This document shows positions 5,921 through 18,089 of a stretch of 64,000 nt of DNA, piece by piece. The first letter of the stretch is position 1. The number at the start of each line of letters is the position of its first letter. The DNA is taken from assembly GCA_041910335.1 (NCBI GenBank), contig JAYRRF010000024.1, positions 18,529-82,528 of the forward strand, in the 5' to 3' direction. Made by a program: the position numbers and the translations under genes. The notes beneath the pieces are model-generated. The model was not told where the DNA came from. It did not search any database and was given only the letters and a program-made list of their open reading frames with translations. Source of the stretch: Candidatus Moraniibacteriota bacterium. GTDB taxonomy: Bacteria > Patescibacteriota > Minisyncoccia > Moranbacterales > UBA1568.

Positions 5921-6544
5921 ATGGTCAAGAGATACGATGTTGTTATTATTCCAACACCGGAGGTCGCGCGAGCTGCTTGTGAGTTGAGCCAGCTCGTCGC
6001 TTCTCGATACGACACATGTTTTATTTTGAATGATGCTAATCAGGTACCACATCTGTCCCTGTATCACTTTGTTGCTCACGAAGAGAAGTTATCTGATATT
6101 ATAGAAGCTCTTAGTGAAAGATCTGCTTCTCAAGAAGCTTTTATGTTACAAGCAGTTGGCTATGATAGAGATAACATGCCATGGTTGCAGGCCCTCTACG
6201 AGAGAAGTGACCATCTTTCTAACCTTCATGAGAGCGTCTTAGAAGCAGTAGCTCCATTTCACGAAAAAAGAAAAAACTACAACCAGACAGAAGAATGGTC
6301 TACTGAGTCCCTCGTTCGCAAGGAAAATCTTGAGCGTTATGGTTGGTCGGAGGCAGGATCTCTCTATAAGCCACACATTACCCTTACTCGTTTTGATGAG
6401 GCTATCGATCAAGATAATATACCACCTTTCCCAGCGTCAATGACTTCTTTTATGGCGACGAAGCTTGGCTTGTATGAGCTTGGTGATTATGGTACATGTC
6501 ATAATTTGCTTGCTCAATTCAACCTCAACACACCTATCGTATGA
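5921..6544 (+). CDS. 2H phosphoesterase superfamily protein (LigT/2'-5' RNA ligase-like)
   Basis: Two H-x-[TS]-x motifs: HLSLYH and HITLTR. Confidence 0.65.
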   Translation: MVKRYDVVIIPTPEVARAACELSQLVASRYDTCFILNDANQVPHLSLYHFVAHEEKLSDIIEALSERSASQEAFMLQAVGYDRDNMPWLQALYERSDHLSNLHESVLEAVAPFHEKRKNYNQTEEWSTESLVRKENLERYGWSEAGSLYKPHITLTRFDEAIDQDNIPPFPASMTSFMATKLGLYELGDYGTCHNLLAQFNLNTPIV

Positions 6545-6978
6545 AAATACATGAACTCGGACACGTCGTCCTGTTTGTCACCAATCTGACCAAAATGGCT
6601 GACTTTTATCGAGACACTCTTGGCTTTCATGAAATTGCTCGTGATAGTCAGACGGCACTCTTCGGAGCTGGGCGTACTCACCATGAGATGCTTTTGATTG
6701 AGATAGGAGGACACGTAGAGCCTCGTGCTCATGCCAAGCCAGGCTTGTACCATATCGGCTTCAAGATAGGGGAGACGACGGATGATATCCGAAATGCTTT
6801 GGAGGAGCTCCAGTCAAAGGGAGTGACTATTGTTGGCACCGCTGATCATCATGTGACTCATAGTCTCTATATTCTCGATCCAGAAGGTAATGAGCTTGAG
6901 CTCTATGCCGATGTCTCTGATGAGTGGAAGACTGACCCGAAGGCAGTTCTACGACCAACCAGGCATCTCTACTTGTAA
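6541..6978 (+). CDS. VOC-family (glyoxalase/bleomycin-resistance/dioxygenase fold) protein
   Basis: HVVLFVTNLTKMADFYRDTLGF ... HIGFKI ... ILDPEGNELEL pattern. Confidence 0.75.
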   Translation: MKIHELGHVVLFVTNLTKMADFYRDTLGFHEIARDSQTALFGAGRTHHEMLLIEIGGHVEPRAHAKPGLYHIGFKIGETTDDIRNALEELQSKGVTIVGTADHHVTHSLYILDPEGNELELYADVSDEWKTDPKAVLRPTRHLYL

Positions 6979-7024
6979 GCAAAAGAAGAGTATACTAAAG
7001 ATGTAATTCATAACACTCAAAACT

Positions 7025-7393
7025 ATGAAAGGTTATGTTGGTAACATCGAAAAAAAGACAGAAGAAAACGAGAACTATCGAGAAGTGGTTTTCACTGGTC
7101 AGCACATGCAGCTCGTCGTTATGACTCTTCAGGTAGGCGAAGAGATTGGTCTTGAAGTGCATGATACACATGACCAGTTTTTTCGAGTAGAGGTTGGCCA
7201 AGCCAAGATAGTGATGAATGGAGAAGAGAGTATCATCGGTGCCGGTAGTGCTGCTATCGTGACCGCTGGCACAGAGCACAACGTGGTCAATACCGGAACT
7301 GAACCACTCAAGCTCTACACCATCTACGCTCCTCCACAGCATCCAGATGGTACTATCCATAAGACCAAAGCTGATGAACCAGAACATCACTAA
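7025..7393 (+). CDS. Cupin-domain protein
   Basis: Cupin beta-barrel motifs G(X)5HxH-like: LEVHDTHDQFFRVEVGQAKIVMNGEE ... GTEHNVVNTG. Confidence 0.65.
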   Translation: MKGYVGNIEKKTEENENYREVVFTGQHMQLVVMTLQVGEEIGLEVHDTHDQFFRVEVGQAKIVMNGEESIIGAGSAAIVTAGTEHNVVNTGTEPLKLYTIYAPPQHPDGTIHKTKADEPEHH

Positions 7394-7557
7394 AAACATT
7401 GAAGCCAACGTCAATGAGAAGAATGTGACGGGAATTTTAGGATTTCTCTTTGGCAAGAAAGTGACGAAGGATAAGAGATTACTTTTTCTTTTGCCATTTA
7501 TCATCGCTTTTATTCAAAGAATCCTTACCAAAAAAACAACAGGTAAGTAATAAACTT

Positions 7558-7977
7558 ATGGTCAAGCAAATATTCATCAATCTAGCCGTCAAGAACCTCG
7601 AGCGATCGGTAGAGTTTTTTGCGGCGCTTGGGTTCAGTTTCAATCCAGATTTTACCGATGAGAAAGCTACTTGCATGATCATGGGAGAGAATATCTTCGC
7701 GATGCTTCTCACAGAAGAGTTCTTTGATACTTTCATCCCGACGACTGAGAGGGTAGATTCCTTGCGTATGACTGAGGTACTTACTGCTATCACTCTCGAG
7801 AGCCGTGAGGCAGTCGATAAAATGGTTGATGTAGCGCTGTCCTTGGGCGCGACTGAGCCACGGCCACCACAAGACTATGGGTGGATGTACTCTCGCTCCT
7901 TTCAGGACTTAGACGGTCATATCTGGGAGCCATTCTACGGGGACGAAGAAGTGAGACAACAACAAGGCGACGAATAA
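7558..7977 (+). CDS. VOC/glyoxalase-family protein
   Basis: FINLAVKNLERSVEFFAALGF ... DLDGHIWEP pattern. Confidence 0.7.
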   Translation: MVKQIFINLAVKNLERSVEFFAALGFSFNPDFTDEKATCMIMGENIFAMLLTEEFFDTFIPTTERVDSLRMTEVLTAITLESREAVDKMVDVALSLGATEPRPPQDYGWMYSRSFQDLDGHIWEPFYGDEEVRQQQGDE

Positions 7978-7980
7978 CCA

Positions 7981-8004
7981 AAAACCGAGGGAAACCTCGG
8001 TTTT
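7981..8004. terminator. Bidirectional intrinsic terminator
   Basis: AAAACCGAGG-gaaa-CCTCGGTTTT, with A/T runs on both sides between convergent genes. Confidence 0.75.
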
Positions 8005-8025
8005 GAATAGGCTTTGCTAGAAGAG

Positions 8026-8238
8026 TTATTTCTTCAAGATTTTTGCCATTAGGATAGCGCCAGGGCAGTAACCAGTTAGCGCAAAGATGCATAACATACC
8101 ACCCACAAAGATATCACCCCAGAGGAACCGAACATCGAGAGTGAGAGTGAGAATAGCAAAAGCTATCACGAGCAATCCGCCGACAAGGTACATAGCACGC
8201 TCTACTGACCAAGTATCAGTATTCATTTTGTAAATCAT
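8026..8238 (-). CDS. DUF2892 (YgaP-like, rhodanese-associated) small membrane protein
   Basis: 70 aa, two TM segments, C-terminal GYCPG motif typical of DUF2892. Confidence 0.6.
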   Translation of the reverse strand: MIYKMNTDTWSVERAMYLVGGLLVIAFAILTLTLDVRFLWGDIFVGGMLCIFALTGYCPGAILMAKILKK

Positions 8239-8254
8239 ACGTCTTTTTTATGAG

Positions 8255-11200
8255 TTATTTTTTATTATCCCACTTCTTTCTCTCAAAAACAAAATAAACA
8301 AGAGGAAAGACAATGAGCGTGAGAAGTGTAGAAGCGGTGAGTCCAAGGATGATAGACCAGGCCAATCCCTCCCAGACAGGGTCACTAACGATAGTGAGTG
8401 ATCCAAGAATGGCCGCGAGTGATGTCAGAACTATAGGGAGAAGACGAATACGTCCAGCTTCTACCAAAGCCTGAACGAGAGGCAAGCCTTTTTGTTTGAG
8501 AGGTTCGAGATACTCCAGATAGATGACCGCGTTCTTGACAGCGAGTCCTGCAAGAGCGATGACACCAATCATAGAAGTGGCATTGAAGTAAGTACCTTTC
8601 AATGCATAGAGAATTGCAAAGCCAGGAAGAACACCGATGAGTGAGAGGGGAATGCTGACCATGATAAGGAGTGGTGTGAAGAGGGACTTTGCTTTAGCAG
8701 CCAATACGAAGTAGATGAGGAATATAGCAAAACCCATAGCAATACCAAGGTCACGAAAAACCTCGAGCGTGAGCTTCCATTCGCCGTCTATTTCGATAGA
8801 GTAGGGTTCACCCGTAGCAGGTACTTGATAGTTAGTACCAAAGAGTGACCAATGATGAAGCTCTGCTTCTCCATTTGGAAAATGATAATTGAGCAAAAGA
8901 GGAAAGAGATCAAGTACAGCATAGATTATGCTACGATTCTCCATTTCCCCAGAAACATAGACAGTCTCTTCACGACCATCGGTAAGGATGGTAGTAGAGG
9001 CGGGGGAGTTATCTTTCGTAAGAATCTCACTAAGAGGTACTTTCGTTCCATCTTGAGCAGAGAGCAGAATCAGAGAAAGGTCGCTTTCTTCGTTGCGAGA
9101 GTTTTGGTCGTATCGAACGATGATGAACTCTTGTTCTTCTTTGGTGATTCCTTCGTGAAGAGTTTGATGATAGAGACCGGCTGATGTACCCGAGAGAGCT
9201 GTTTTGAGAGCGCTGACAGCGTCATGAGGAGTAATTCCAAGGAGTTGAGCCTTTTCTCTGTCTAAATGATATAGGTAATCATAGCCTCGTTCAGGCACAG
9301 AAGTCTTGAGATCGACTATACCGGGAATACTTTGAGATTTGATAGCAAGATCCTGAGCAATTGCTTCAAGAGTTTTGGTATCGGACCCTTTTATCTTGAG
9401 CAGATAGGTAGATTTGACAGGTGGTCCTGGCGGATCTTCCATGAGACGAACATGAGCATCAGGAAAGAGAGTTTGGTACTCTGGCAGAGCATGACGTGTC
9501 TCAGTGGCTATTGCCTCCGAGGTTATAGAACGTTCTTCATGTGGAGTTAGGCGAACCTTGAGAGTAGCTTGCTCAGTACCTTGACGCATGCTGCTACCTT
9601 TGAAGAGGCCGTTGAAGTCAATGATTTGAGAAGTACCAATGAAACTCTCGACACCAGATACCTCAGGCTGTTTCAGTAGCAAATCCTCGAGGCCCTGAGT
9701 AGCAAGAGTTGTTTTGGAAAGAGCGGTACCCTTAGGGAGGTCAAGATAGATATAGAACTGATCCTTATTCGCCTTCGGTAGCATACGAAATGGTACCAAT
9801 GGAGTGAGGGGAAGGATGAGAGAAATAAGTAACACAAAACCAATACCAAGGAGAAATCGTCGACGTTGTCGGTGTACAGCTAGAAGATTGCTGAGGAACT
9901 GTGCATAGCGAGTCTCTATCTTTTGCATGAGACGATAAAAGAAGCCTTGCTCATAGTCGTGATGATTCTGGTTGTCTCCCTTTGCAAGAAAGAGGTGAGC
10001 AAGGTAAGGATTGATTGTTACCGATAGTAAGAGTGACACCAGGAGAGCGGCTGGCACAAAGAAGGGGATCGGTCCCATGTAAGGCCCCATCATACCCGTT
10101 ACGAAAGCCATTGGCAGGAACGCGAGAGCCATAGTGAGAGTGGAGAGAGAAAGTGCGCCACCTACTTCGTTGACCGCTTGGACGATGAGGTGAATTTTAT
10201 TTGGCTCATTTGGATGAAGGCGAAAGTATCGGGCAATGTTTTCTACCACAACGATAGCATCATCTACGAGCAGCCCAAGAGAGAGGATGAGTGCGAAGAG
10301 AGTAATACGATTGACGGTCTGATCAGCCATAAGTCCAAGTCCAAAGACTGCCAAGAGTACAAGTGGGATAGAGATAGAGGCGACAAGAGAGTTGCGGAAA
10401 CCGAGAAAAATATACAACAGTATCCCGACAATGAGGATGGATTTGATAAGGTCAAAAGTCAGCTTGAAGATTTCAGCTCGAGCCGTCTCACCTTCATTAT
10501 TAAGGACATCTAAGTAAGTATTTTGTGGAAGGGTAGATGTGCGAATTTCTTCGAGCTGTTGCTCTACCGCGTCAGTGACAGTAGTGGAGTTAATGCCAGC
10601 GTGTTTTGCGAGGGCGATATGTACAATTTCTTCGCGAGGAGTATCCTTTTCGTGCAACCATACAGAATGAGTAATTTCACCAGGGCCGGCCGTAATCGTA
10701 GCGATATCACCGAGACGAGTAAGGCTTTGTCCTTGGCTTCGGACAATAAGACGAGATAGATCATCAGGATTGGTAATGTTTCCTTCTACAGAGACAAGAG
10801 GGTTGCGGTCTTCCCCGCTGAGGCTGTCGAAAGTATAGATAGTATTGGTGCTCTGAATAGCACGGAGTACTTCGTCAAGGCTGATACCAGTCGCTTTGAG
10901 TTTCTCTCCATTGAGACTGACCTGTAGGTGATTGACAGTGCCACCCTTGATTTCATATGTAGATACACCGGAGACACGTTTGAGTTTCTCAGCTATATCT
11001 TGAGCGAGTTTACGTAGGGAGCTTTGCGAAAGTTCACTAGAACGAACGCCAATATCTATAACAGGTACGTCATCAGGATTGACGGATTGTATCAGCGGAG
11101 TAAGAGCACCCGCTGGTTTGAGATAGCTCTTATCGAGTATTTTTTGGTTGAGTGAAATCTTAGCATCTTCTTGATTCGATCCGACCAAGAACTGTACAGT

Positions 11201-11518
11201 GACTTGGCTGGCACCACCTGGGCTACTAGTCGAAGAAATCTTATCGACGGCAGGTATCTCAGCTACAGTATCTTCGAGTGGTCGCGTCACAAGGTCGTAC
11301 ACCTCTTCAGCTGAGGCGCCAGGAAATTCAGTAGTGATAACAAAGGCCGGCGCTACGATTTCTGGATTGTATTGTTTGGGCATGAGAACAAAAGAAATGA
11401 GTCCCCAGAAACCAAGGATAAGAATACTCAAGAAAGATATTTCTCGATTGGTGAGAAAAAAATGAGTCAGTTTGCCAGCAATGCCAAGAGAGGATTTGGG
11501 AAGAGTAGACATAAGCAC
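8255..11518 (-). CDS. RND-family efflux transporter permease (AcrB/HAE1-like, 1087 aa)
   Basis: 12-TM RND architecture with two large periplasmic loops. The stretch around VFVTGMMGPYMGPIPFFVPAALLVSLLLSVTINPYLA is typical of the family. Confidence 0.9.
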   Translation of the reverse strand: MLMSTLPKSSLGIAGKLTHFFLTNREISFLSILILGFWGLISFVLMPKQYNPEIVAPAFVITTEFPGASAEEVYDLVTRPLEDTVAEIPAVDKISSTSSPGGASQVTVQFLVGSNQEDAKISLNQKILDKSYLKPAGALTPLIQSVNPDDVPVIDIGVRSSELSQSSLRKLAQDIAEKLKRVSGVSTYEIKGGTVNHLQVSLNGEKLKATGISLDEVLRAIQSTNTIYTFDSLSGEDRNPLVSVEGNITNPDDLSRLIVRSQGQSLTRLGDIATITAGPGEITHSVWLHEKDTPREEIVHIALAKHAGINSTTVTDAVEQQLEEIRTSTLPQNTYLDVLNNEGETARAEIFKLTFDLIKSILIVGILLYIFLGFRNSLVASISIPLVLLAVFGLGLMADQTVNRITLFALILSLGLLVDDAIVVVENIARYFRLHPNEPNKIHLIVQAVNEVGGALSLSTLTMALAFLPMAFVTGMMGPYMGPIPFFVPAALLVSLLLSVTINPYLAHLFLAKGDNQNHHDYEQGFFYRLMQKIETRYAQFLSNLLAVHRQRRRFLLGIGFVLLISLILPLTPLVPFRMLPKANKDQFYIYLDLPKGTALSKTTLATQGLEDLLLKQPEVSGVESFIGTSQIIDFNGLFKGSSMRQGTEQATLKVRLTPHEERSITSEAIATETRHALPEYQTLFPDAHVRLMEDPPGPPVKSTYLLKIKGSDTKTLEAIAQDLAIKSQSIPGIVDLKTSVPERGYDYLYHLDREKAQLLGITPHDAVSALKTALSGTSAGLYHQTLHEGITKEEQEFIIVRYDQNSRNEESDLSLILLSAQDGTKVPLSEILTKDNSPASTTILTDGREETVYVSGEMENRSIIYAVLDLFPLLLNYHFPNGEAELHHWSLFGTNYQVPATGEPYSIEIDGEWKLTLEVFRDLGIAMGFAIFLIYFVLAAKAKSLFTPLLIMVSIPLSLIGVLPGFAILYALKGTYFNATSMIGVIALAGLAVKNAVIYLEYLEPLKQKGLPLVQALVEAGRIRLLPIVLTSLAAILGSLTIVSDPVWEGLAWSIILGLTASTLLTLIVFPLVYFVFERKKWDNKK

Positions 11519-12657
11519 TATTCGATATGGACGGAAGCATTGTCATGAAGAGAGTGTTGTCCTTCGATAACGACAATGTCATTAGTAGTAAGGCCATCGA
11601 GTACTTCTCGTTGGTTGCCAATACTTTGGCCAAGAGTAACTTTTTGCATGTGAGCATGATTGTCTTTGACTACGTACACATAGGTGTCATCGTAGACCCA
11701 GAGCAATGCCTTTTCCGGTATCAGAATGTGTTCATCAGCAGTAGGTTCTGTCAGAGTGAGGAGAGCCTGAACGTGGTCACCAATATGCACGTGTTGTCTC
11801 GCTTCTTTTCCGAGAGCAATGCGAATGCCCATTTCTTCAGAGCGCTCCCCGAGAGATTCTGCGATAGATATGATATGCGCAGGCACAGCGTCACCAGCCT
11901 CAGTCTCTAGCGTGATAGTGGTGTCTGAAGTAATAGCAGATCGATAGCTGCGAGGAACAGAGACAAATACCTCTAGCTCTTCGGGTGTGGCGAGTGTATA
12001 CAGGGGAGTGCTTGGTGAAACAAGGTTACCAAGGGAAGCTTGTCTTTCTAAGATGACACCACTGAAAGGAGCCCGCACGATAGTGTTGGCGAGCATAGCA
12101 TTAGCTATCAGTGATTGACTTTGAGTAGCAGCTTCACTAGTGAGTGCCTTTGCGATTTCGGCATCACGTAGACGCTTAGCGCTTATGACGCTTTCTTGGG
12201 CGACATCTACATCATGACTTGTGGCATCACCATTGCGCTTGGAAGCCTTCACTTGGTCAAGTGAAGCCTCTGCCTCAGCTACTTTTTGCTTGAAATAGCG
12301 AGCGGCTTCTTCGGTAGCAGCAGAGTTTTGTTCTGAGACCTGGTCGGCACCTGATGCACCTGCACGGAGTTCGCTTGCTTCAAGGACAGCAAGAACTTCT
12401 CCTTTGTGTACGAAGTCACCCTCGAGCTTAGTAAGACGGACTGTGTAGCCAGCGATACGCGGATAGACCACAGTATGGTTTTTACCTCTGGCAAATCCAG
12501 AAAATGCAATCTTTCGAGAGGCATGGGTGTCGGTAAGAGTAACGGTTTTGACTGGCGTTTCAGATGAAACGGTCATAACCCCTTCTTTTGCTTGAGCATA
12601 GTAATACCCAGCGCTTACGACCAAAAAGAAGATGATCCAAAAAATAGATTTTTTCAT
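11518..12657 (-). CDS. RND efflux membrane-fusion (periplasmic adaptor, HlyD-like) protein
   Basis: N-terminal signal anchor, coiled-coil hairpin (A/E/K-rich) and beta-barrel regions. Its stop overlaps the RND gene start at 11518. Confidence 0.85.
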   Translation of the reverse strand: MKKSIFWIIFFLVVSAGYYYAQAKEGVMTVSSETPVKTVTLTDTHASRKIAFSGFARGKNHTVVYPRIAGYTVRLTKLEGDFVHKGEVLAVLEASELRAGASGADQVSEQNSAATEEAARYFKQKVAEAEASLDQVKASKRNGDATSHDVDVAQESVISAKRLRDAEIAKALTSEAATQSQSLIANAMLANTIVRAPFSGVILERQASLGNLVSPSTPLYTLATPEELEVFVSVPRSYRSAITSDTTITLETEAGDAVPAHIISIAESLGERSEEMGIRIALGKEARQHVHIGDHVQALLTLTEPTADEHILIPEKALLWVYDDTYVYVVKDNHAHMQKVTLGQSIGNQREVLDGLTTNDIVVIEGQHSLHDNASVHIE

Positions 12658-12668
12658 AGAAAATTTTC

Positions 12669-13733
12669 TTAACGATTATGATTTCTCCCCATGCCATTAC
12701 CAGTTTCTTGAGGGGTGTTAAGGATGGCGGTTAGTTCTTCAGCACTTATGTACTGTGCTGCGTATGTCGTACCAGTTTTTTGTTCAAGCTGACGATTGAA
12801 AGCACGGAGATGGTTGCGTGATCCGCGAGTAAGGTTTTCGTACACATTTTGGATATCAGTTTTCTGAGTGCGTCCTAGAGCAGTGTTGATATCACGAATA
12901 TCTAGATCTTCAATAGTAGCACCCACGAGAAGAGCTTGTTCAAGAGATAGTACACCTTGTTTTGTGAGACTTATGTACAGTGCTTGGAGTTCTTGATTCT
13001 GAAAAGTCCCCGGAGTATCTGTAGCGACCGGATCTGGCAGACCGTACTTTTCGAGAAGTGCACCAACGGTGGCCATGTGAGTAGTTTCACTTTGGGAAAT
13101 ATTTTGAAAAATAGGAAGCTTCCACTGGTTGTACAGAGCTCTATACACATCTCTTGCGAGCTTTTCTTCTTCGCGGGTGAAGATAAGATCAGCCTTCTCT
13201 TCTGAAGAAAGGGTATCAGACGTCATAGCTGGTCCGCTTACAATATCAGCAGGAACGAGCATATCAGACTCATTTACGATGTATGTAGATGGATGTAGCC
13301 ACAGAAACCAGGCGAGTCCAGCGATAAAAGCTATTCCTAGCAGAAAGAAGGCAATAGTTTTTTTTGATACGTAAGGAAGAGCCATAGAGTAATGATTATT
13401 AGGAGAAGAAAGTTCACGAAGAGAATCTTGCATTGCTTGCCAGGCGATGAGACCACCAGAGACGTTGATGAGCTCACCGTTGACCCCAAGAGCATGAAGA
13501 GTCTCGATGGCCTTTTCAGAGCGTCTACCGCTCCGGCAATGGACATAGATAGTCTTTTTGTTGCGTAGCTCATCGACATGACCGAAGAGTGCATCGAGGG
13601 GTACATTGCGGACACCAGCAATATGGTGTTCCGCATATTCTTCGGGAGTACAGACATTGATGAAGTCGACCTCGGGAGAGGTGTTACCTTCGTGGAGTGC
13701 CTTCTGGAATTCTTCGACAGTGATGTGTTTCAT
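12669..13733 (-). CDS. Rhodanese-domain protein fused to a TM segment and a DUF2202 (ferritin-like) domain
   Basis: Rhodanese active-site loop IYVHCRSGRRSEKA, then a TM helix, then a C-terminal EEKLARDVYRALYNQW ferritin-like motif. Confidence 0.7.
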   Translation of the reverse strand: MKHITVEEFQKALHEGNTSPEVDFINVCTPEEYAEHHIAGVRNVPLDALFGHVDELRNKKTIYVHCRSGRRSEKAIETLHALGVNGELINVSGGLIAWQAMQDSLRELSSPNNHYSMALPYVSKKTIAFFLLGIAFIAGLAWFLWLHPSTYIVNESDMLVPADIVSGPAMTSDTLSSEEKADLIFTREEEKLARDVYRALYNQWKLPIFQNISQSETTHMATVGALLEKYGLPDPVATDTPGTFQNQELQALYISLTKQGVLSLEQALLVGATIEDLDIRDINTALGRTQKTDIQNVYENLTRGSRNHLRAFNRQLEQKTGTTYAAQYISAEELTAILNTPQETGNGMGRNHNR

Positions 13734-13744
13734 AGGGGAGAGTC

Positions 13745-13999
13745 CTAACCCTTGATGAGAGCGATGAGTTTACTGAACATCTCTTTCTCTTTGCTCGTAG
13801 TAGGTGAAGCAAAATGACGTAAGAGAAATGATTCAGTGAATTTTTGACGGAGCCCCGCAAAAGAACGTGAGGCAGAGAGAAGGGTCTCGCTCGCACGAAT
13901 ACAATTAGGTTCAGGGAGGAGGAGTTCCTTTTTGACAGCGAGAAGCTGGCCCTCGAGACGGCTAATATGGTCGATGATTGCTTTTTGTTCTTTGGTCAT
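13745..13999 (-). CDS. CsoR/CstR/RcnR-family (DUF156) metal- or persulfide-sensing repressor
   Basis: 84 aa with an all-helical pattern and a conserved Cys in LPEPNCIRASETLLSASRSF. It sits directly upstream of a palindromic operator. Confidence 0.7.
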   Translation of the reverse strand: MTKEQKAIIDHISRLEGQLLAVKKELLLPEPNCIRASETLLSASRSFAGLRQKFTESFLLRHFASPTTSKEKEMFSKLIALIKG

Positions 14000-14028
14000 A
14001 GGTGCTTGGTTATTTGGCTACTCTTCTT

Positions 14029-14048
14029 GTATACCATAGGGGGTATAC
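14029..14048. promoter_or_regulatory. Candidate CsoR-type operator: inverted repeat GTATACC-ATAGG-GGTATAC
   Basis: Perfect 7-bp arms around a G-tract, located 30 nt upstream of the repressor start. It resembles the B. subtilis CsoR operator ATACCnnnnGGGGTAT. Half-site-like GGGTATATAC and AGTATAC recur at 14062-14075 and 14099-14106. Confidence 0.6.
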
Positions 14049-14296
14049 TATAGTCAAGAGGAGAGGTAAAAAGGGTATATACTAAAAAGGTAAACAAATA
14101 GTATACAAATCTATGCATCAAGAAGACGAAATGAGTGAAGGCTACCCAGAGCAAGACCATCCAGAGCCTGGCGTTGTCTCAGTCAATGATGAGAGCTTTT
14201 CGGAAGGCGAGCTCCATATTCGCTACGAAGAGAAGCAGGCCGATATGGGTATTGATGAAGAGCGTCTTGCTGAGGAGTTCAGTGAACTTTAGAGCT

Positions 14297-14698
14297 ATGG
14301 ATACAAAAATGTGGTACATGCAGTTAGTCAAACCCGCCTGGGCACCGCCGAGCTATCTTTTCGGTCCCGTCTGGACGATTCTCTATGCTGTCATTGTTGT
14401 GACGTATGGGACTGTTCTCTACAAAGTCATCAAAGGAGAATGGCCGGCAGTTATCTTGATACCATTTGGACTCAACCTATTTTTCAACCTTATTTTTTCA
14501 CCCATACAGTTCGGCCTTCAGAATAACGTGCTTGCAAGTATCGATATTCTTCTGGTGCTCATGACTCTCATCTGGATGATTGTCACTATCTTTCCATACG
14601 CAAGATGGATTGCCTTTGCCAATGTTCCGTATCTTCTTTGGGTCGCTTTTGCTACTGTGCTTCAGTTAACGATTACGTATCTTAATTGGGGAAAGTAA
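14297..14698 (+). CDS. tspO: TspO/MBR-family tryptophan-rich sensory protein
   Basis: MWYMQLVKPAWAPPSYLFGPVWTILY signature plus 5 TM segments. Start is placed at the ATG at 14297; the ORF-track start at 14135 adds a non-homologous extension. Confidence 0.75.
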   Translation: MDTKMWYMQLVKPAWAPPSYLFGPVWTILYAVIVVTYGTVLYKVIKGEWPAVILIPFGLNLFFNLIFSPIQFGLQNNVLASIDILLVLMTLIWMIVTIFPYARWIAFANVPYLLWVAFATVLQLTITYLNWGK

Positions 14699-14756: not shown

Positions 14757-17700
14757 ATGCAAAAGACTTTTGTTGGGGCAGTAGTTGTCTTGATGGGAGT
14801 CTTTTGTCTTTTTTCTTCGGCGGAGGCAGCAACGATTGTGAACGGAGCTCTGCCGGCAAGTACTACTTGGACAAAAGCGGGGAGTCCATACATAGCTACT
14901 GGTGTGACGGTGCCAGCTGGCATGATGCTTACTATTGAGCCAGGAGTTATCGTGAAGTTAAGAGGAACACAAGCTCTTTATTCAGCTGGTACTCTCAATA
15001 TAGGCGGGGATGGTGAGCCTGTGATCATCACGACTCAGAAAGATGATAGTTATGGTGGCGATACCAATAATGACGGATCAGCTACAGCGCCCTCTAAGTC
15101 AGACTGGTGTTATATTGGAGTACATACCAATGCTACTCTGATAGTCAAGAATACTCACATCTACTATGGAGGTTGCACTCCTACCTATGGTCAGTTGTAC
15201 AACTTCGGAGGAGTAATGGTGGTAGAGAATTCGCTTCTTACCAAGAGTGGACAGTTCGGTCTTTTAGCTGCCAGCGGTAACACCACTTTCCGCAACAACG
15301 AAGTGACGGGCAATGTTATCGGAGTGCGCTATCATAGTGGTACTCTGACTATGGAGGGAAATAGCATCCATGACAATCTCGAGTATGGTATGACCAATAC
15401 GTCGCTCGCTCATACAGTAGTAGACGCGCGCAATACCTGGTGGGGTGACACGACCGGACCACTCCATGTCACCACCAATCCGAATGGTCTCGGTAACAAG
15501 GTGTCGGACTATATTCTCTACACGCCCTGGAAAGACTGCTTCAATAACTGTGTATCGAATGTGATGTTTTTACCAGGCATCATGGGGACGAGACTGTACG
15601 GCACCGGTGACGAAGAGCTCTGGGTCTCGAGTAGTGATAGTAAGCAGGAGCGGATGGAGATGAACTCAGACGGTATCAGCAAACATGATATCTATACCAA
15701 GGATGACACGATGAGGGGGAACGAAATAGATGAGACAGGTATCGTTGATGATATCTATGGAGCTAACTTGTACCAGTCATTTCTTAATGACTTGCGTGAC
15801 TGGAAGACAGAAGGGGTGTATAGCGACTATGCTTTTATTCCCTATGACTGGCGTTTATCACTTGATGATATCGTCATGAATGGTCGAGTAGATGTATCAG
15901 GTAATCTCCGCTATACAGAGAACAATACAGACTTGACCCAGAGTTATCTTTACCAGAAGGCCAAAGCCTTACAGCTAAGCTCCAAGTCAGGTAAGATCAC
16001 TCTCATTGGACATTCCAATGGAGGGCTCGTCATCAAGGCCTTCGTCCAGAAATTGAAAGATGTGAATGATCCACTCTACCACACTATCGATAAAATCATC
16101 CTCGTCGGTGTACCGCAGACCGGGACACCTGACAGTATCGTGAGTATGCTCTACGGATCCAAGATCGGTATTGCTTGGCTCGGAGTCTCTGATAGACGCA
16201 CTCGCTCCCTCATCCATGATATGCCGACGATGTACAATCTTCTTCCGAGCGAGAGACTGTTTGATACTATCAACCCACCCATTGAATTCGTTGGAAGCAA
16301 TATCGACCCGAGTTGGACGAGTCGCTATGGTGAAAAAATTAATACCTATGGAGAGCTCCAAGATTTCCTCGGAGGCAGTGAAGGGAGAAGTCGACCAGAG
16401 TTTGCGGATACCTATGCACCAGAGGTGCTCAACCATAACATGCTCAGTCAAGCAGAGGGAGTTCATCAAGTGCTTGATAATTGGACGCCAGCTCCAGAAA
16501 CAGAAGTAGTGCAGATAGCTGGCTGGGGAATGTACACTGTGGCAGGGCTAAAAGTGACTGATGATAAGAAGTGTATCTTCAATAGCAACCAACTCATCGG
16601 CGGCAGACCGGTCTGTGTAGAGATCAGAGGAAGTGTCACAGTTGAGGATAAAATGACGCTCAATGGTGATGCAACAGTGCTCGTACAGAGCGCACATAAT
16701 ATTCCGGAGAGCGGGAATGTGAAGAAGTATTGGATTGATTTAGGTCGTTATAATACCAGAGCTTTCGTGCAGCGATTTATACCAGACACAAAACATAAAG
16801 ACGTTCTTGAAATGAATTCTATCCGTCCTTTCATAAAATCTCTCATTAATAAAAGTATCAGTACAGATTTTGACTATATTAGTTCTTTTGAGCCAGAACC
16901 CATTAATGATCCATACATTAAATATGACATCCACTCACCATTACATCTGACCGTCACTGATGCTAATGGACGAGTGGTCGGCTGGGACGCATCAAGCGGT
17001 GAGATAGTCGAGCACGTCAAGGGGGCGCAGTACTTCGAGATAGGAGAGAATAAGACTGTATTGATACCGAAAGCCACTCTGCACACTGTCCGACTCACTG
17101 CCTATGAAGAGGGGTCATTCACGCTCGGAGTGAGTGAGCTTTCTGGTGAGAGTGTCACGAGTGAGACGAAGTTCACCGCTATCCCGACTCTCGCTCACTC
17201 AGTAGTAGAGGTGACTCCAGCGACAGAGACAGTACCTCTCGGTATGCAGGTAGACTTCGATGCCGATGGTACAGTAGAGACGACGCTCGAGGCAGTGCCA
17301 GGAGAAGTGACAGAGTACGAAAATCCAGTCCCTCTTGATACGACGCCACCAGAGACGACACTCAGTCTTGATGGACCTGTAGGGATGAATGGTTGGTATA
17401 GAGGCGATGTACGCATCACTCTTACGACGGAAGAAGGTGCTACGACAGAATATTCACTTGATGGTGGTAGCTGGCAGACATATACTGAGCCGTTCACGGT
17501 TACTCGAGAGGGGATTACAGAGCTTCATTACCGCTCTATCGATGTGGCGAGGAATATAGAAGAGACTCAGTCAAGTGAGATCAAGATAGACATACTGCCA
17601 CCAGAGGCCAAGATAGGTTTCGATGTAGCCACTGGTACACTCAAGGTGGTTGGTCTACAGGAAGGTATTCAGGTGGAGTCTACTAGCATGACGTATCTTT

Positions 17701-18089
17701 TGACTGACCAGGCGGGCAATACTACAAGACTGATGTTCGGTAAGATCAAAGAAAAAGAAAAGAAAGAACAAGGGGAGTATATATTGCGAGCGCTCCAGTA
17801 TGACCAAGAGCCGGTGATCAACCTCAAAGATACGAACCTCAAGTATTTCTACAAAGGGGAGAAAAAGCGAGATGATGCTAAGGCATTCACTTCATCTCTA
17901 CGAACTCATACTCAGAGGCTTATCGCACACTATGTGAAGAAACGCAACCAGACATATATCATGGACAAAACAGAGAGTGAAGATGATGACCCGGAGACAT
18001 GCGAAAAGCGAAAGATAAAGAAGGTTTTATCAGGCCTCGTGGTACCATATATGGAGACAGAGAAGGGGAAAATAAATATTAAATATTAA
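14757..18089 (+). CDS. Large secreted multidomain protein (1110 aa): signal peptide, parallel beta-helix repeats, GxSxG lipase/esterase domain, C-terminal Ig-like domains
   Basis: Signal peptide MQKTFVGAVVVLMGVFCLFSSAEA. PbH1-like repeats (NNEVTGNVIGVRY, GNSIHDNLEYG). Lipase-type nucleophile elbow LIGHSNGGLVIKAF (PGAP1/DUF676-like). Chitobiase/Big-like C-terminal modules (YSLDGGSWQTYTEPFTVTREGITELHYRSIDVARN). Confidence 0.8.
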   Translation: MQKTFVGAVVVLMGVFCLFSSAEAATIVNGALPASTTWTKAGSPYIATGVTVPAGMMLTIEPGVIVKLRGTQALYSAGTLNIGGDGEPVIITTQKDDSYGGDTNNDGSATAPSKSDWCYIGVHTNATLIVKNTHIYYGGCTPTYGQLYNFGGVMVVENSLLTKSGQFGLLAASGNTTFRNNEVTGNVIGVRYHSGTLTMEGNSIHDNLEYGMTNTSLAHTVVDARNTWWGDTTGPLHVTTNPNGLGNKVSDYILYTPWKDCFNNCVSNVMFLPGIMGTRLYGTGDEELWVSSSDSKQERMEMNSDGISKHDIYTKDDTMRGNEIDETGIVDDIYGANLYQSFLNDLRDWKTEGVYSDYAFIPYDWRLSLDDIVMNGRVDVSGNLRYTENNTDLTQSYLYQKAKALQLSSKSGKITLIGHSNGGLVIKAFVQKLKDVNDPLYHTIDKIILVGVPQTGTPDSIVSMLYGSKIGIAWLGVSDRRTRSLIHDMPTMYNLLPSERLFDTINPPIEFVGSNIDPSWTSRYGEKINTYGELQDFLGGSEGRSRPEFADTYAPEVLNHNMLSQAEGVHQVLDNWTPAPETEVVQIAGWGMYTVAGLKVTDDKKCIFNSNQLIGGRPVCVEIRGSVTVEDKMTLNGDATVLVQSAHNIPESGNVKKYWIDLGRYNTRAFVQRFIPDTKHKDVLEMNSIRPFIKSLINKSISTDFDYISSFEPEPINDPYIKYDIHSPLHLTVTDANGRVVGWDASSGEIVEHVKGAQYFEIGENKTVLIPKATLHTVRLTAYEEGSFTLGVSELSGESVTSETKFTAIPTLAHSVVEVTPATETVPLGMQVDFDADGTVETTLEAVPGEVTEYENPVPLDTTPPETTLSLDGPVGMNGWYRGDVRITLTTEEGATTEYSLDGGSWQTYTEPFTVTREGITELHYRSIDVARNIEETQSSEIKIDILPPEAKIGFDVATGTLKVVGLQEGIQVESTSMTYLLTDQAGNTTRLMFGKIKEKEKKEQGEYILRALQYDQEPVINLKDTNLKYFYKGEKKRDDAKAFTSSLRTHTQRLIAHYVKKRNQTYIMDKTESEDDDPETCEKRKIKKVLSGLVVPYMETEKGKINIKY

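Follow-up and report, generated by a model that had tools for sequence, protein, structure and literature searches.

What does a small repressor of the CsoR/RcnR type sense in a Candidatus Moraniibacteriota bacterium, and how did a rhodanese and an efflux pump of the resistance-nodulation-division (RND) type come to stand together behind it? The question is raised by a minus-strand operon in a 64,000-nt stretch of contig JAYRRF010000024.1 (hereafter the window, meaning the whole stretch at its full length). A sequence-only reading had described it as a CsoR/CstR-like repressor with a palindromic operator that controls a rhodanese and RND efflux module responsive to persulfide, sulfide or Cu(I). 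The analysis reported here favors, with somewhat better than even confidence, an autoregulated operon that is controlled by a thiol switch, induced by reactive sulfur and rewired onto the pump. Loci examined for comparison are referred to by L numbers.

The five-gene operon outlined in the sequence-only reading was found in full, as closely packed open reading frames (ORFs) at nt 8026–13999 on the minus strand. The first gene encoded the repressor (nt 13745–13999, 84 aa, with a lone cysteine at residue 33), and the second, on the basis of Pfam matches, a chimeric membrane protein consisting of a rhodanese, a transmembrane helix and DUF2202 (nt 12669–13733, 354 aa). These were followed by a HlyD/RND adaptor, or membrane-fusion protein (nt 11518–12657, 379 aa), which had HlyD-family matches and scored 164 bits with TIGR01730 (cut-off 94.9); by an RND permease (ACR_tran) of the AcrB/MdtB or hydrophobe/amphiphile efflux (HAE) type (nt 8255–11518, 1087 aa, E 2e-164); and by a DUF2892 protein resembling the transmembrane part of YgaP (nt 8026–8238, 70 aa), with two transmembrane helices, a TGYCPG motif and 27.1 bits against a cut-off of 25.3. 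Gaps between successive genes were 11, 11, -1 and 16 nt. A terminator-like hairpin with a 10-bp stem and a T-rich tail was located at the operon end (nt 7981–8004, minus strand), and in a consensus scan promoter-like and terminator-like sites were no commoner inside the operon than in shuffled sequence. Owing to the tight gaps, the end hairpin and the lack of an excess of internal sites, the five genes were taken as one transcription unit, and with so tight an operon the pump is very probably under the control of this repressor. No outer-membrane channel gene accompanied the adaptor and RND genes, and NCBIfam left the repressor, the DUF2892 protein and the DUF2202 protein unnamed.

The predicted operator, composed of GTATACC (nt 14029–14035), ATAGGG and GGTATAC (nt 14042–14048), occupied nt 14029–14048 and read GTATACCCCCTATGGTATAC on the gene strand, with a conserved core of ATACC-N6-GGTAT containing a C5 tract. 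The perfect inverted repeat noticed earlier in this promoter was thus real, although its spacer was 6 nt (ATAGGG) and not 5 nt. A putative -35 hexamer, TTGACT (nt 14052–14057, minus strand), was read from the sequence and was invariant in relatives, and a putative -10 hexamer, TATACA (nt 14028–14033, minus strand), followed after 18 nt. On the gene strand this spacer contained ATAGTATACCCCCTATGG; the operator filled it and, through its promoter-proximal arm, overlapped the -10. TTGACA or TTGACT was present 5′ of the operator in many loci, and TATAAT or TATACT stood at the -10 place in relatives. The consensus scan did not call the TATACA of the window because the final T is absent.

Perfect 7-nt inverted repeats with spacers of 4–8 nt occurred 51 times in the window, so the repeat alone carried no significance, and its position and conservation had to decide. 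For this purpose 36 loci from species-representative genomes (GTDB) and several from public assemblies were surveyed, giving 40 distinct upstream regions. A related site was found in all 40, lying 20–45 nt before the start codon and usually between TTGACA-like and TATAAT-like hexamers, in the form ATACC-N6-GGTAT or as ATAGGG..CCCTAT with a G/C tract. The strict pattern ATA-SSS-N2-6-SSS-TAT matched 26 of these 40 regions, compared with 10 matches on both strands of the remaining 461 kb of locus sequence. The block CTTGACTATAGTATACCCCCTATGGTATA did not vary among five close relatives, although column identity across their intergenic DNA was 79% on average. A second copy of the operator was not found in the window, and hence nothing pointed to a larger regulon in these 64 kb. 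Operators of the CsoR/RcnR family are pseudo-palindromes, typically with at least 4 consecutive G or C (PMC10318464), and the site in the window is likewise a pseudo-palindrome with a G/C run of at least 4 that overlaps a promoter. Its design is nearly identical to that of the published operator of the Streptococcus mitis cst operon, ATATACCCTTATGGGGTATAT (PMC8643695). The resemblance to CsoR-family operators claimed earlier therefore held, in the AT-rich arms, in the G/C run and in the near match to the CstR operator. Taken from sequence, these features make it very likely that a CsoR/RcnR-family repressor acts here at an operator typical of the family, which overlaps the promoter of the repressor gene itself.

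The genes that follow the repressor in its relatives provided the main reason for favoring reactive sulfur as the signal. A rhodanese gene came directly after the repressor gene in 33 of the 36 GTDB reference loci, and 27 of the 36 had the order repressor, 173-aa rhodanese with a C-terminal YgaP-like two-helix domain, and metallo-beta-lactamase-fold protein of about 290 aa. The last matched type II persulfide dioxygenase structures (4YSK and 4YSL, E 3e-104) as well as the dioxygenase part of the NCBIfam Blh model (E 1e-118). In eight loci a membrane-anchored DUF2202 protein was inserted. The sulfur link was thus stronger than had been claimed, since the repressor of the relatives precedes a membrane rhodanese and a type II persulfide dioxygenase; a neighborhood of the CstR type exists family-wide, and the window itself retains the rhodanese domain only. 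A variant operon lacking a separate YgaP-type rhodanese gene was observed in two loci (L019:488-2500 and L020:1961-4000), where a repressor with Cys33 and Cys57 is followed by a 333-aa ORF of the persulfide dioxygenase type, within which the rhodanese segment seemingly lies, and then by a thioredoxin-like protein.

The family of the repressor was assigned with some indirectness. Its PF02583 alignment was full length (positions 1–77 of 78) but scored 19.9 bits, under the gathering score of 22.8, while most of 109 homologues, those at 54–88% identity being considered, carried a precomputed PF02583 match. The AlphaFold2 model built on the family alignment had helices at residues 3–26, 33–62 and 69–83 and a mean predicted local distance difference test (pLDDT) value of 90.7. 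In a Foldseek search of the PDB the top 14 matches were all FrmR, CsoR, CstR or InrS, with a best TM-score of 0.71 and a probability of 1.00, although the E-values were weak. FrmR (5LCY and 5LBM) was the closest solved match by sequence and fold (E 0.014 with the family profile). No CstR structure reached E <= 1 in single-sequence or family-profile searches, which did not hit solved CsoR either; only FrmR and InrS appeared, at E 0.01–0.7. Placement in the superfamily therefore rests on the Pfam matches of the homologues together with the predicted fold. When 1.84 billion cluster representatives (50% identity clusters) were searched with a profile, 54 clusters passed E <= 0.001, and 18 passed E <= 1e-10. 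By sequence and model, the repressor belongs to a small, distinct and divergent clade with the predicted CsoR/RcnR fold. Members named by organism were mainly from the Patescibacteria or candidate phyla radiation (CPR), including Paceibacterota, Nomurabacteria and Kaiserbacteria. Some repressor-bearing contigs (L001, CAYLMF010000049.1, and L021–L026) were labelled Bdellovibrionales or Gammaproteobacteria; these are probably mis-binned CPR contigs, horizontal transfer being the alternative.

Alignment with FrmR (5LCY and 5LBM) placed Cys33 at position X (FrmR Cys35), Phe58 at Y (FrmR His60) and His62 at Z. Among 110 sequences, His11, Arg14, Gly17, Gln18, Cys33, Arg45, Arg51, Phe54 and Phe58 were invariant, residue 62 was His in 87, Tyr in 22 and Glu in 1, and Cys33 was the lone cysteine in 100. 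The N-termini varied (MTK, MND, MEN and others) and never began with Met-Pro, residue 2 being Thr, Asn, Lys or Glu, and no His was present at positions 2–4 in this alignment. Published fingerprints are x-C-H-C for CsoR, x-C-H-H for Thermus CsoR, H-C-H-H for RcnR, H-C-H-C for InrS, P-C-H-x for FrmR and x-C-x-C for CstR (PMC8643695), and the clade matched none of the six. The ligand sets of FrmR and RcnR, which the sequence-only reading had named as findings that would speak against it, were both lacking in the repressor of the window. His11 was considered as an inducer ligand and set aside; it aligns with the helix-1 position of FrmR Arg14, and contact with DNA was judged more likely. That position presumably corresponds to the DNA-binding Arg15 of Mycobacterium tuberculosis CsoR.

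Cysteines other than Cys33 shifted from group to group. Almost all distant members (38–55% identity, L017–L035) had Cys33 and Cys57 with Lys or Thr at 62, several of them with an additional Cys5. The group at 57–68% identity (L002–L015) had Cys33 only; position 57 was occupied by Ser, Ala or Thr, and position 62 by His or Tyr. The nearest relatives of the window protein had Cys27 and Cys33, and the window protein itself has Leu27. The operator class tracked the protein class, being ATACCCC..GGGGTAT in the two-cysteine class, ATAGGGTACCCCCTAT in the one-cysteine class and ATAGTATACCCCCTATGGTATA in the subclade of the window. An invariant cysteine whose partner shifts or vanishes is more consistent with a thiol switch than with a metal site. 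In CstR the N-terminal cysteine attacks, and the resolving cysteine is poorly conserved in one CstR cluster (PMC8643695), which provides a precedent for a one-cysteine version. The description of the protein as a CstR-like regulator therefore stands as a functional analogy, whereas in sequence the second cysteine is absent and the protein is nearer to FrmR than to CstR, both being distant.

How the pump came under this repressor was apparent from synteny. Three close relatives (L039; L040/L041; L042), with repressors 85–89% identical to that of the window, were collinear with it on both flanks, one containing the large LCAT-like surface protein, TspO and a small acidic ORF, and the other the Ble/glyoxalase, cupin, glyoxalase, 2′,5′-RNA-ligase-like, Excalibur-domain and YgjP-like genes. 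The operon in L039–L042 consisted of repressor, rhodanese with YgaP-like transmembrane domain (174 aa) and dioxygenase (295 aa). Similarity by blastn with L039, L040 and L042 covered the repressor and about the first 100–150 codons of the rhodanese, stopped at about nt 13440–13592 and resumed at about nt 7987. A swapped-in segment of about 5.4 kb (nt 7988–13440 on the minus strand, bounds approximate and set by the breaks in synteny), containing the transmembrane helix and DUF2202, the adaptor, the RND permease and the DUF2892 protein, took the place of the part coding for the YgaP-like transmembrane domain and of the persulfide dioxygenase of the relatives. The junction lay within the second gene. 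By protein alignment, residues 1 to about 120 of the fusion represent the resident rhodanese (58–60% identical to those of L039 and L040), and from about residue 122 onward the fusion represents an entire signal-anchored DUF2202 protein, 64% identical to a free-standing 234-aa protein of L044.

Locus L044 has an 87% identical repressor, DUF2202, adaptor, RND permease and DUF2892 genes and the same operator type, and is without a rhodanese. It was more distant from the window than L039 and L040 (48% versus 68–74% identity in the LCAT-like protein), yet its cassette was 64–73% identical, which indicates that the cassette moved or recombined at the locus and was not simply inherited. The combination of rhodanese and pump was unique among about 45 loci carrying this repressor. 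Thus, the rhodanese–RND pairing is a mosaic of this genome, with a rhodanese-less version in L044, and not a conserved family module, and the earlier view of rhodanese and pump as one sulfur-linked module gave way to cassette replacement once the relatives were compared. Just downstream in L044, in convergent orientation, a class I pyridine-nucleotide disulfide oxidoreductase of 462 aa was observed (L044:9553-10941, minus strand), which, judged by sequence, could be a (per)sulfide or disulfide reductase.

The pump has a module of its own. When metagenomes were scanned with the RND protein, 32 loci were recovered, and in nearly all of them the adaptor lay 5′ of the permease. A DUF2892 protein with a TG(Y/W)CP motif followed the permease in about 19 of 22 unrelated loci that had downstream sequence, and a small gene preceded the adaptor in 22 of 27, every scanned representative of it being a PF02583 protein. 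CsoR-family regulator, adaptor, RND permease and DUF2892 protein thus form a recurrent module in itself (for example, L050:4559-9484 and L053:4568-9446 among L049–L075). The DUF2892 protein belongs with the pump, and its former use as a rhodanese-associated sign of sulfur transfer had to be dropped. The common pump regulator was about 95 aa, with one cysteine at X and His or Tyr at Y (x-C-H-x), and its operator was TATACC-N3-GGTATA flanked by extra ATACC/GGTAT repeats; the pump regulators of L060 and L062 had x-C-x-C, the CstR fingerprint. In the window and in L044, to judge from the sequences, the regulator of the pump is replaced by the rhodanese-linked one. Sulfur-related neighbors were present near the pump module and not universal, namely a DUF2202 lipoprotein in L062, a YgaP-like protein and a single-domain rhodanese in L072 and an exported tandem rhodanese in L055.

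The best NCBIfam models for the permease were those of multidrug RND permeases, with the CusA/CzcA model TIGR00914 lower (300 bits versus a cut-off of 701), and all scores were under the curated cut-offs of the named subfamilies. Its best solved relatives were MdtB, CmeB, MexB and AcrB, and no CusA/CzcA structure was among its top 60 PDB matches. Transmembrane helix 4 read LLVDDAIVVVEN, with an AcrB-like VDD motif (the DD proton relay). For these reasons a heavy-metal-efflux RND pump of the CusA/CzcA kind was rejected. That the pump exports a sulfur compound appears doubtful and is the weakest step of the mechanism considered below. The membrane domain of YgaP shifts its conformation on binding thiocyanate, and thiocyanate export has been proposed (PMC4730233); this result was the only functional hint for DUF2892 found in the literature.

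In the fusion protein, Pfam placed a rhodanese at residues 6–100 (E 2.6e-13) and DUF2202 at residues 180–340 (E 1.3e-55), with one hydrophobic helix at about 125–147, and the active-site loop VHCRSGRRS was intact. The earlier description of a rhodanese (CRSGRRS) fused to a transmembrane helix and a ferritin-like DUF2202 domain agreed with these matches. By analogy with YgaP-type and signal-anchored proteins, the rhodanese (aa 1 to about 110) would be cytoplasmic and DUF2202, beyond the single transmembrane helix, extracytoplasmic. The YgaP architecture, a rhodanese fused to the two-helix DUF2892, is that of the relatives and not of the window, where DUF2892 is a separate 70-aa protein. DUF2202 matched an uncharacterized Methanocaldococcus jannaschii protein, MJ0754 (3Q4N, E 3e-52), and the motifs REEEKLARDVY, SExTH, IEDLDIRD and GSRNHLRAF were kept; these we take to be a ferritin-like di-metal site. 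Rhodanese and DUF2202 were linked in three ways, as neighbors in operons with the repressor, in the inside/outside fusion of the window and in an independent extracytoplasmic fusion. The last, composed of signal anchor, rhodanese and DUF2202 (about 330 aa), was found in many CPR genomes after an ArsR-type regulator and a glutaredoxin. Operons of this kind, with ArsR-type (HTH_5) regulator, glutaredoxin and a rhodanese–DUF2202 protein of about 332 aa, were located at L046:8490-10011 and, in both L047 and L048, at 8495-9999.

A mechanism that would accommodate these observations is as follows. The repressor would bind the G/C-tract pseudo-palindrome between the -35 and -10 hexamers and block RNA polymerase at the only recognizable promoter of the operon. 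Family context and residue patterns point to reactive sulfur (persulfide, polysulfide or sulfane sulfur) as the probable inducer, a choice made with moderate confidence. It would modify Cys33, at the start of helix 2, in the canonical inducer site facing residues 57–62 of the partner subunit. A di- or polysulfide bridge between Cys33 and Cys57 probably forms in the sister clades, in the manner of CstR. Since the resolving cysteine is missing from the one-cysteine clade, its induced state is proposed to carry on Cys33 a stable persulfide or else a mixed (poly)sulfide, which the rhodanese of the same operon might deliver or His62 of the partner subunit might stabilize. The ancestral regulon would have comprised a YgaP-type membrane rhodanese and a type II persulfide dioxygenase. 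Recombination then joined the resident rhodanese in frame to the membrane-anchored DUF2202 protein and brought in the adaptor, RND and DUF2892 genes for the dioxygenase, so that in this genome the sulfur signal would switch on a membrane rhodanese–DUF2202 protein and an RND–DUF2892 pump, that is, export instead of oxidation. A further-reaching proposal, to which only tentative credence is given, is that the clade represents a new class of reactive-sulfur sensor, in which a dithiol Cys33/Cys57 form passed into a one-cysteine form with His or Tyr at 62 that works by persulfidation or transfer from the rhodanese, and that adaptor, RND, DUF2892 and DUF2202 together would form a dedicated exporter or handler of sulfane-sulfur compounds in bacteria without an outer membrane, in which case efflux would be an alternative to dioxygenase-based detoxification of persulfide.

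Several findings weigh against a sulfur-induced operon. The dioxygenase, the strongest sulfur marker, was found neither in the operon nor anywhere in the window; the nearest solved relatives by sequence and fold were FrmR structures, matched weakly, and the CstR dithiol is absent; most pump loci have their own x-C-H-x regulator and a different operator; and nothing in the pump, an AcrB/MdtB-like RND of generic kind, indicates a sulfur substrate. Moreover, one-cysteine regulators of other families answer many oxidants and electrophiles, and specificity is therefore not readable from the letters of the protein. A serious alternative, if a rather improbable one, is a general one-cysteine sensor of thiol oxidants or electrophiles (peroxides, HOCl, quinones or aldehydes) that drives a multidrug pump, the rhodanese being a leftover. 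The lone cysteine, the multidrug permeases that head the matches of the pump, the loss of the dioxygenase here and the other regulators under which the pump module normally stands would all suit such a sensor. However, the near-obligatory pairing of the family with rhodanese and persulfide dioxygenase indicates sulfane sulfur, the catalytic loop of the rhodanese is intact and its frame was kept through recombination, and DUF2202 is repeatedly linked or fused to rhodanese. An aldehyde sensor of the FrmR kind, responding to formaldehyde or methylglyoxal, would account for FrmR being the best sequence and fold match, for the one-cysteine signature and for the glyoxalase/Ble-like and cupin genes just downstream. 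Pro2 is absent, though, and FrmR His60 is an invariant Phe here; formaldehyde dehydrogenase (frmA) is not present; and the glyoxalase and cupin genes lie on the opposite strand past the terminator and occur equally in relatives with the rhodanese and dioxygenase operon, which leaves this sensor quite unlikely.

Metal was likewise considered, as a Cu(I)- or other metal-sensing repressor of the CsoR/RcnR type coupled to a metal-exporting RND pump. The Pfam family is named for metal-sensitive repressors, and the adaptor showed sub-threshold similarity to adaptors of the CzcB/CusB type. The ligand sets x-C-H-C, x-C-H-H, H-C-H-H and H-C-H-C were nevertheless all absent, as was an N-terminal His; the copper ATPase and chaperone, CopA and CopZ, were encoded in none of the loci examined; and the pump, with its AcrB-like DD in transmembrane helix 4, scored lower with the CusA/CzcA model than with the multidrug models and had no CusA/CzcA structure among its top 60 PDB matches. 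A metal sensor is thus very unlikely, and the Cu(I)-responsive option of the sequence-only reading, for which Phe58 and His62 stand in place of C-H-C ligands, was abandoned. Finally, the arrangement being unique among about 45 repressor loci, the juxtaposition of rhodanese and pump might be an assembly chimera. This is hardly credible, as the identical junction (repressor, fusion gene, adaptor and RND start) was present in an independent Logan assembly, a second, non-identical member of the fusion-protein cluster, also of 354 aa, was found on another contig, L044 has the same cassette behind its 87% identical repressor, every reading frame is uninterrupted, and relatives show collinear sequence on either flank.

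Upstream of the operon, on the plus strand, a divergent unit (nt 14113–14698) consisted of a very acidic 59-aa ORF (nt 14113–14292) and TspO (nt about 14297–14698); the pair was conserved in L039–L042. A conserved GGGTATA(T/A) block at about nt 14072–14084 is its probable -10. As this putative -10 is some 25–30 nt away from the operator, the divergent unit may be co-regulated through it. GTATAC-like sites at about nt 14075 and nt 14100 were considered as second operators and set aside, the conserved block at about nt 14072–14084 reading as the TATAAT-like -10 of the divergent gene. A 23-nt imperfect inverted repeat (nt 14011–14033 and 14078–14100, 74%) was also dismissed, since it was not conserved in relatives. 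In L018, TspO was located downstream of, and co-directional with, the repressor, rhodanese and dioxygenase genes. Beyond the divergent unit, nt 14757–18089 (plus strand) encoded a protein of 1110 aa with beta-helix, LCAT/lipase-like and chitobiase-C-like segments, 48–74% identical in relatives, which is probably a surface enzyme of this lineage. On the other side, just past the operon terminator, Ble/glyoxalase-like, cupin, glyoxalase and 2′,5′-RNA-ligase-like genes were convergent with the operon (nt 5921–7977, plus strand). This cluster is equally present in relatives with the dioxygenase operon and probably lies outside the regulon.

The CsoR family is a model of how one small fold can be retuned to copper, nickel, formaldehyde or persulfide. 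Specificity in this family beyond the W-X-Y-Z residues is still an open question (PMC8643695), and the present clade offers a natural series of two-cysteine, three-cysteine and one-cysteine members with the same rhodanese and dioxygenase genes and co-varying operators, which makes the need for a resolving cysteine testable. Searches of full-text literature found no description of this mainly CPR clade with its one-cysteine and Cys33/Cys57 forms and co-varying operators, of a cassette replacement placing an RND pump under it, of the constant pairing of RND and DUF2892 with CsoR-family regulators, or of the repeated linkage of rhodanese and DUF2202. Searches on DUF2202, MJ0754 and DUF2892, and on RND efflux with persulfide and CstR, found nothing useful. 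The RND–DUF2892 and rhodanese–DUF2202 associations offer an initial lead on what two domains of unknown function do, and the window represents a clean case of rewiring by cassette replacement at a conserved repressor–operator anchor.

Neither the fold nor the style of operator nor the theme of rhodanese with dioxygenase is new. CsoR of M. tuberculosis and Bacillus subtilis (copZA) shares with the present repressor the fold, the G/C-tract pseudo-palindromic operator and, as predicted from sequence, autoregulation, but its C-H-C ligands and its copper ATPase and chaperone genes are absent here. FrmR of Escherichia coli and Salmonella shares the single sensing cysteine at X (5LCY and 5LBM, TM-score 0.71), whereas its site is defined by Pro2 and His60, neither of which occurs here, and the neighbors here are sulfur enzymes with no frmA-type gene. 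Genes of the same kind are regulated by the ArsR-type sulfide/persulfide sensors of the BigR–Blh and YgaV–YgaP systems (PMC9774250, PMC4730233), the rhodanese of the relatives having the architecture of E. coli YgaP and their dioxygenase matching the dioxygenase part of Blh; however, BigR and YgaV have the winged-helix ArsR fold, and the repressor of the window is of the CsoR-type four-helix-bundle family. Adjacent rhodanese and persulfide dioxygenase genes have been reported in CPR bacteria (Microbiome 2024, PMC10811913). Both the gene pair and the group of organisms coincide with those seen here; that text contains neither "CsoR" nor "regulator" and describes no DUF2202 or RND variants, and the clade supplies the missing regulator and operator for the pair. 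With HAE pumps of the AcrAB/MdtABC type, the pump shares the permease and adaptor families and the DD motif of transmembrane helix 4, and it differs in its DUF2892 partner, in its CsoR-family regulators and in having no outer-membrane channel gene. CstR, of the cst operons of Staphylococcus aureus, Enterococcus faecalis and Streptococcus mitis/pneumoniae, shares the fold family and a promoter-overlapping ATACC..G/C tract..GGTAT operator, and its regulon likewise includes rhodanese-domain proteins and a persulfide dioxygenase. It has, however, a cysteine at Z, where this clade has His or Tyr and the sister clades place the partner cysteine at 57 (Y-1) or 5; the conserved residue on the putative DNA face of this clade is His11, and the repressor of the window very probably drives an RND pump in place of a dioxygenase.

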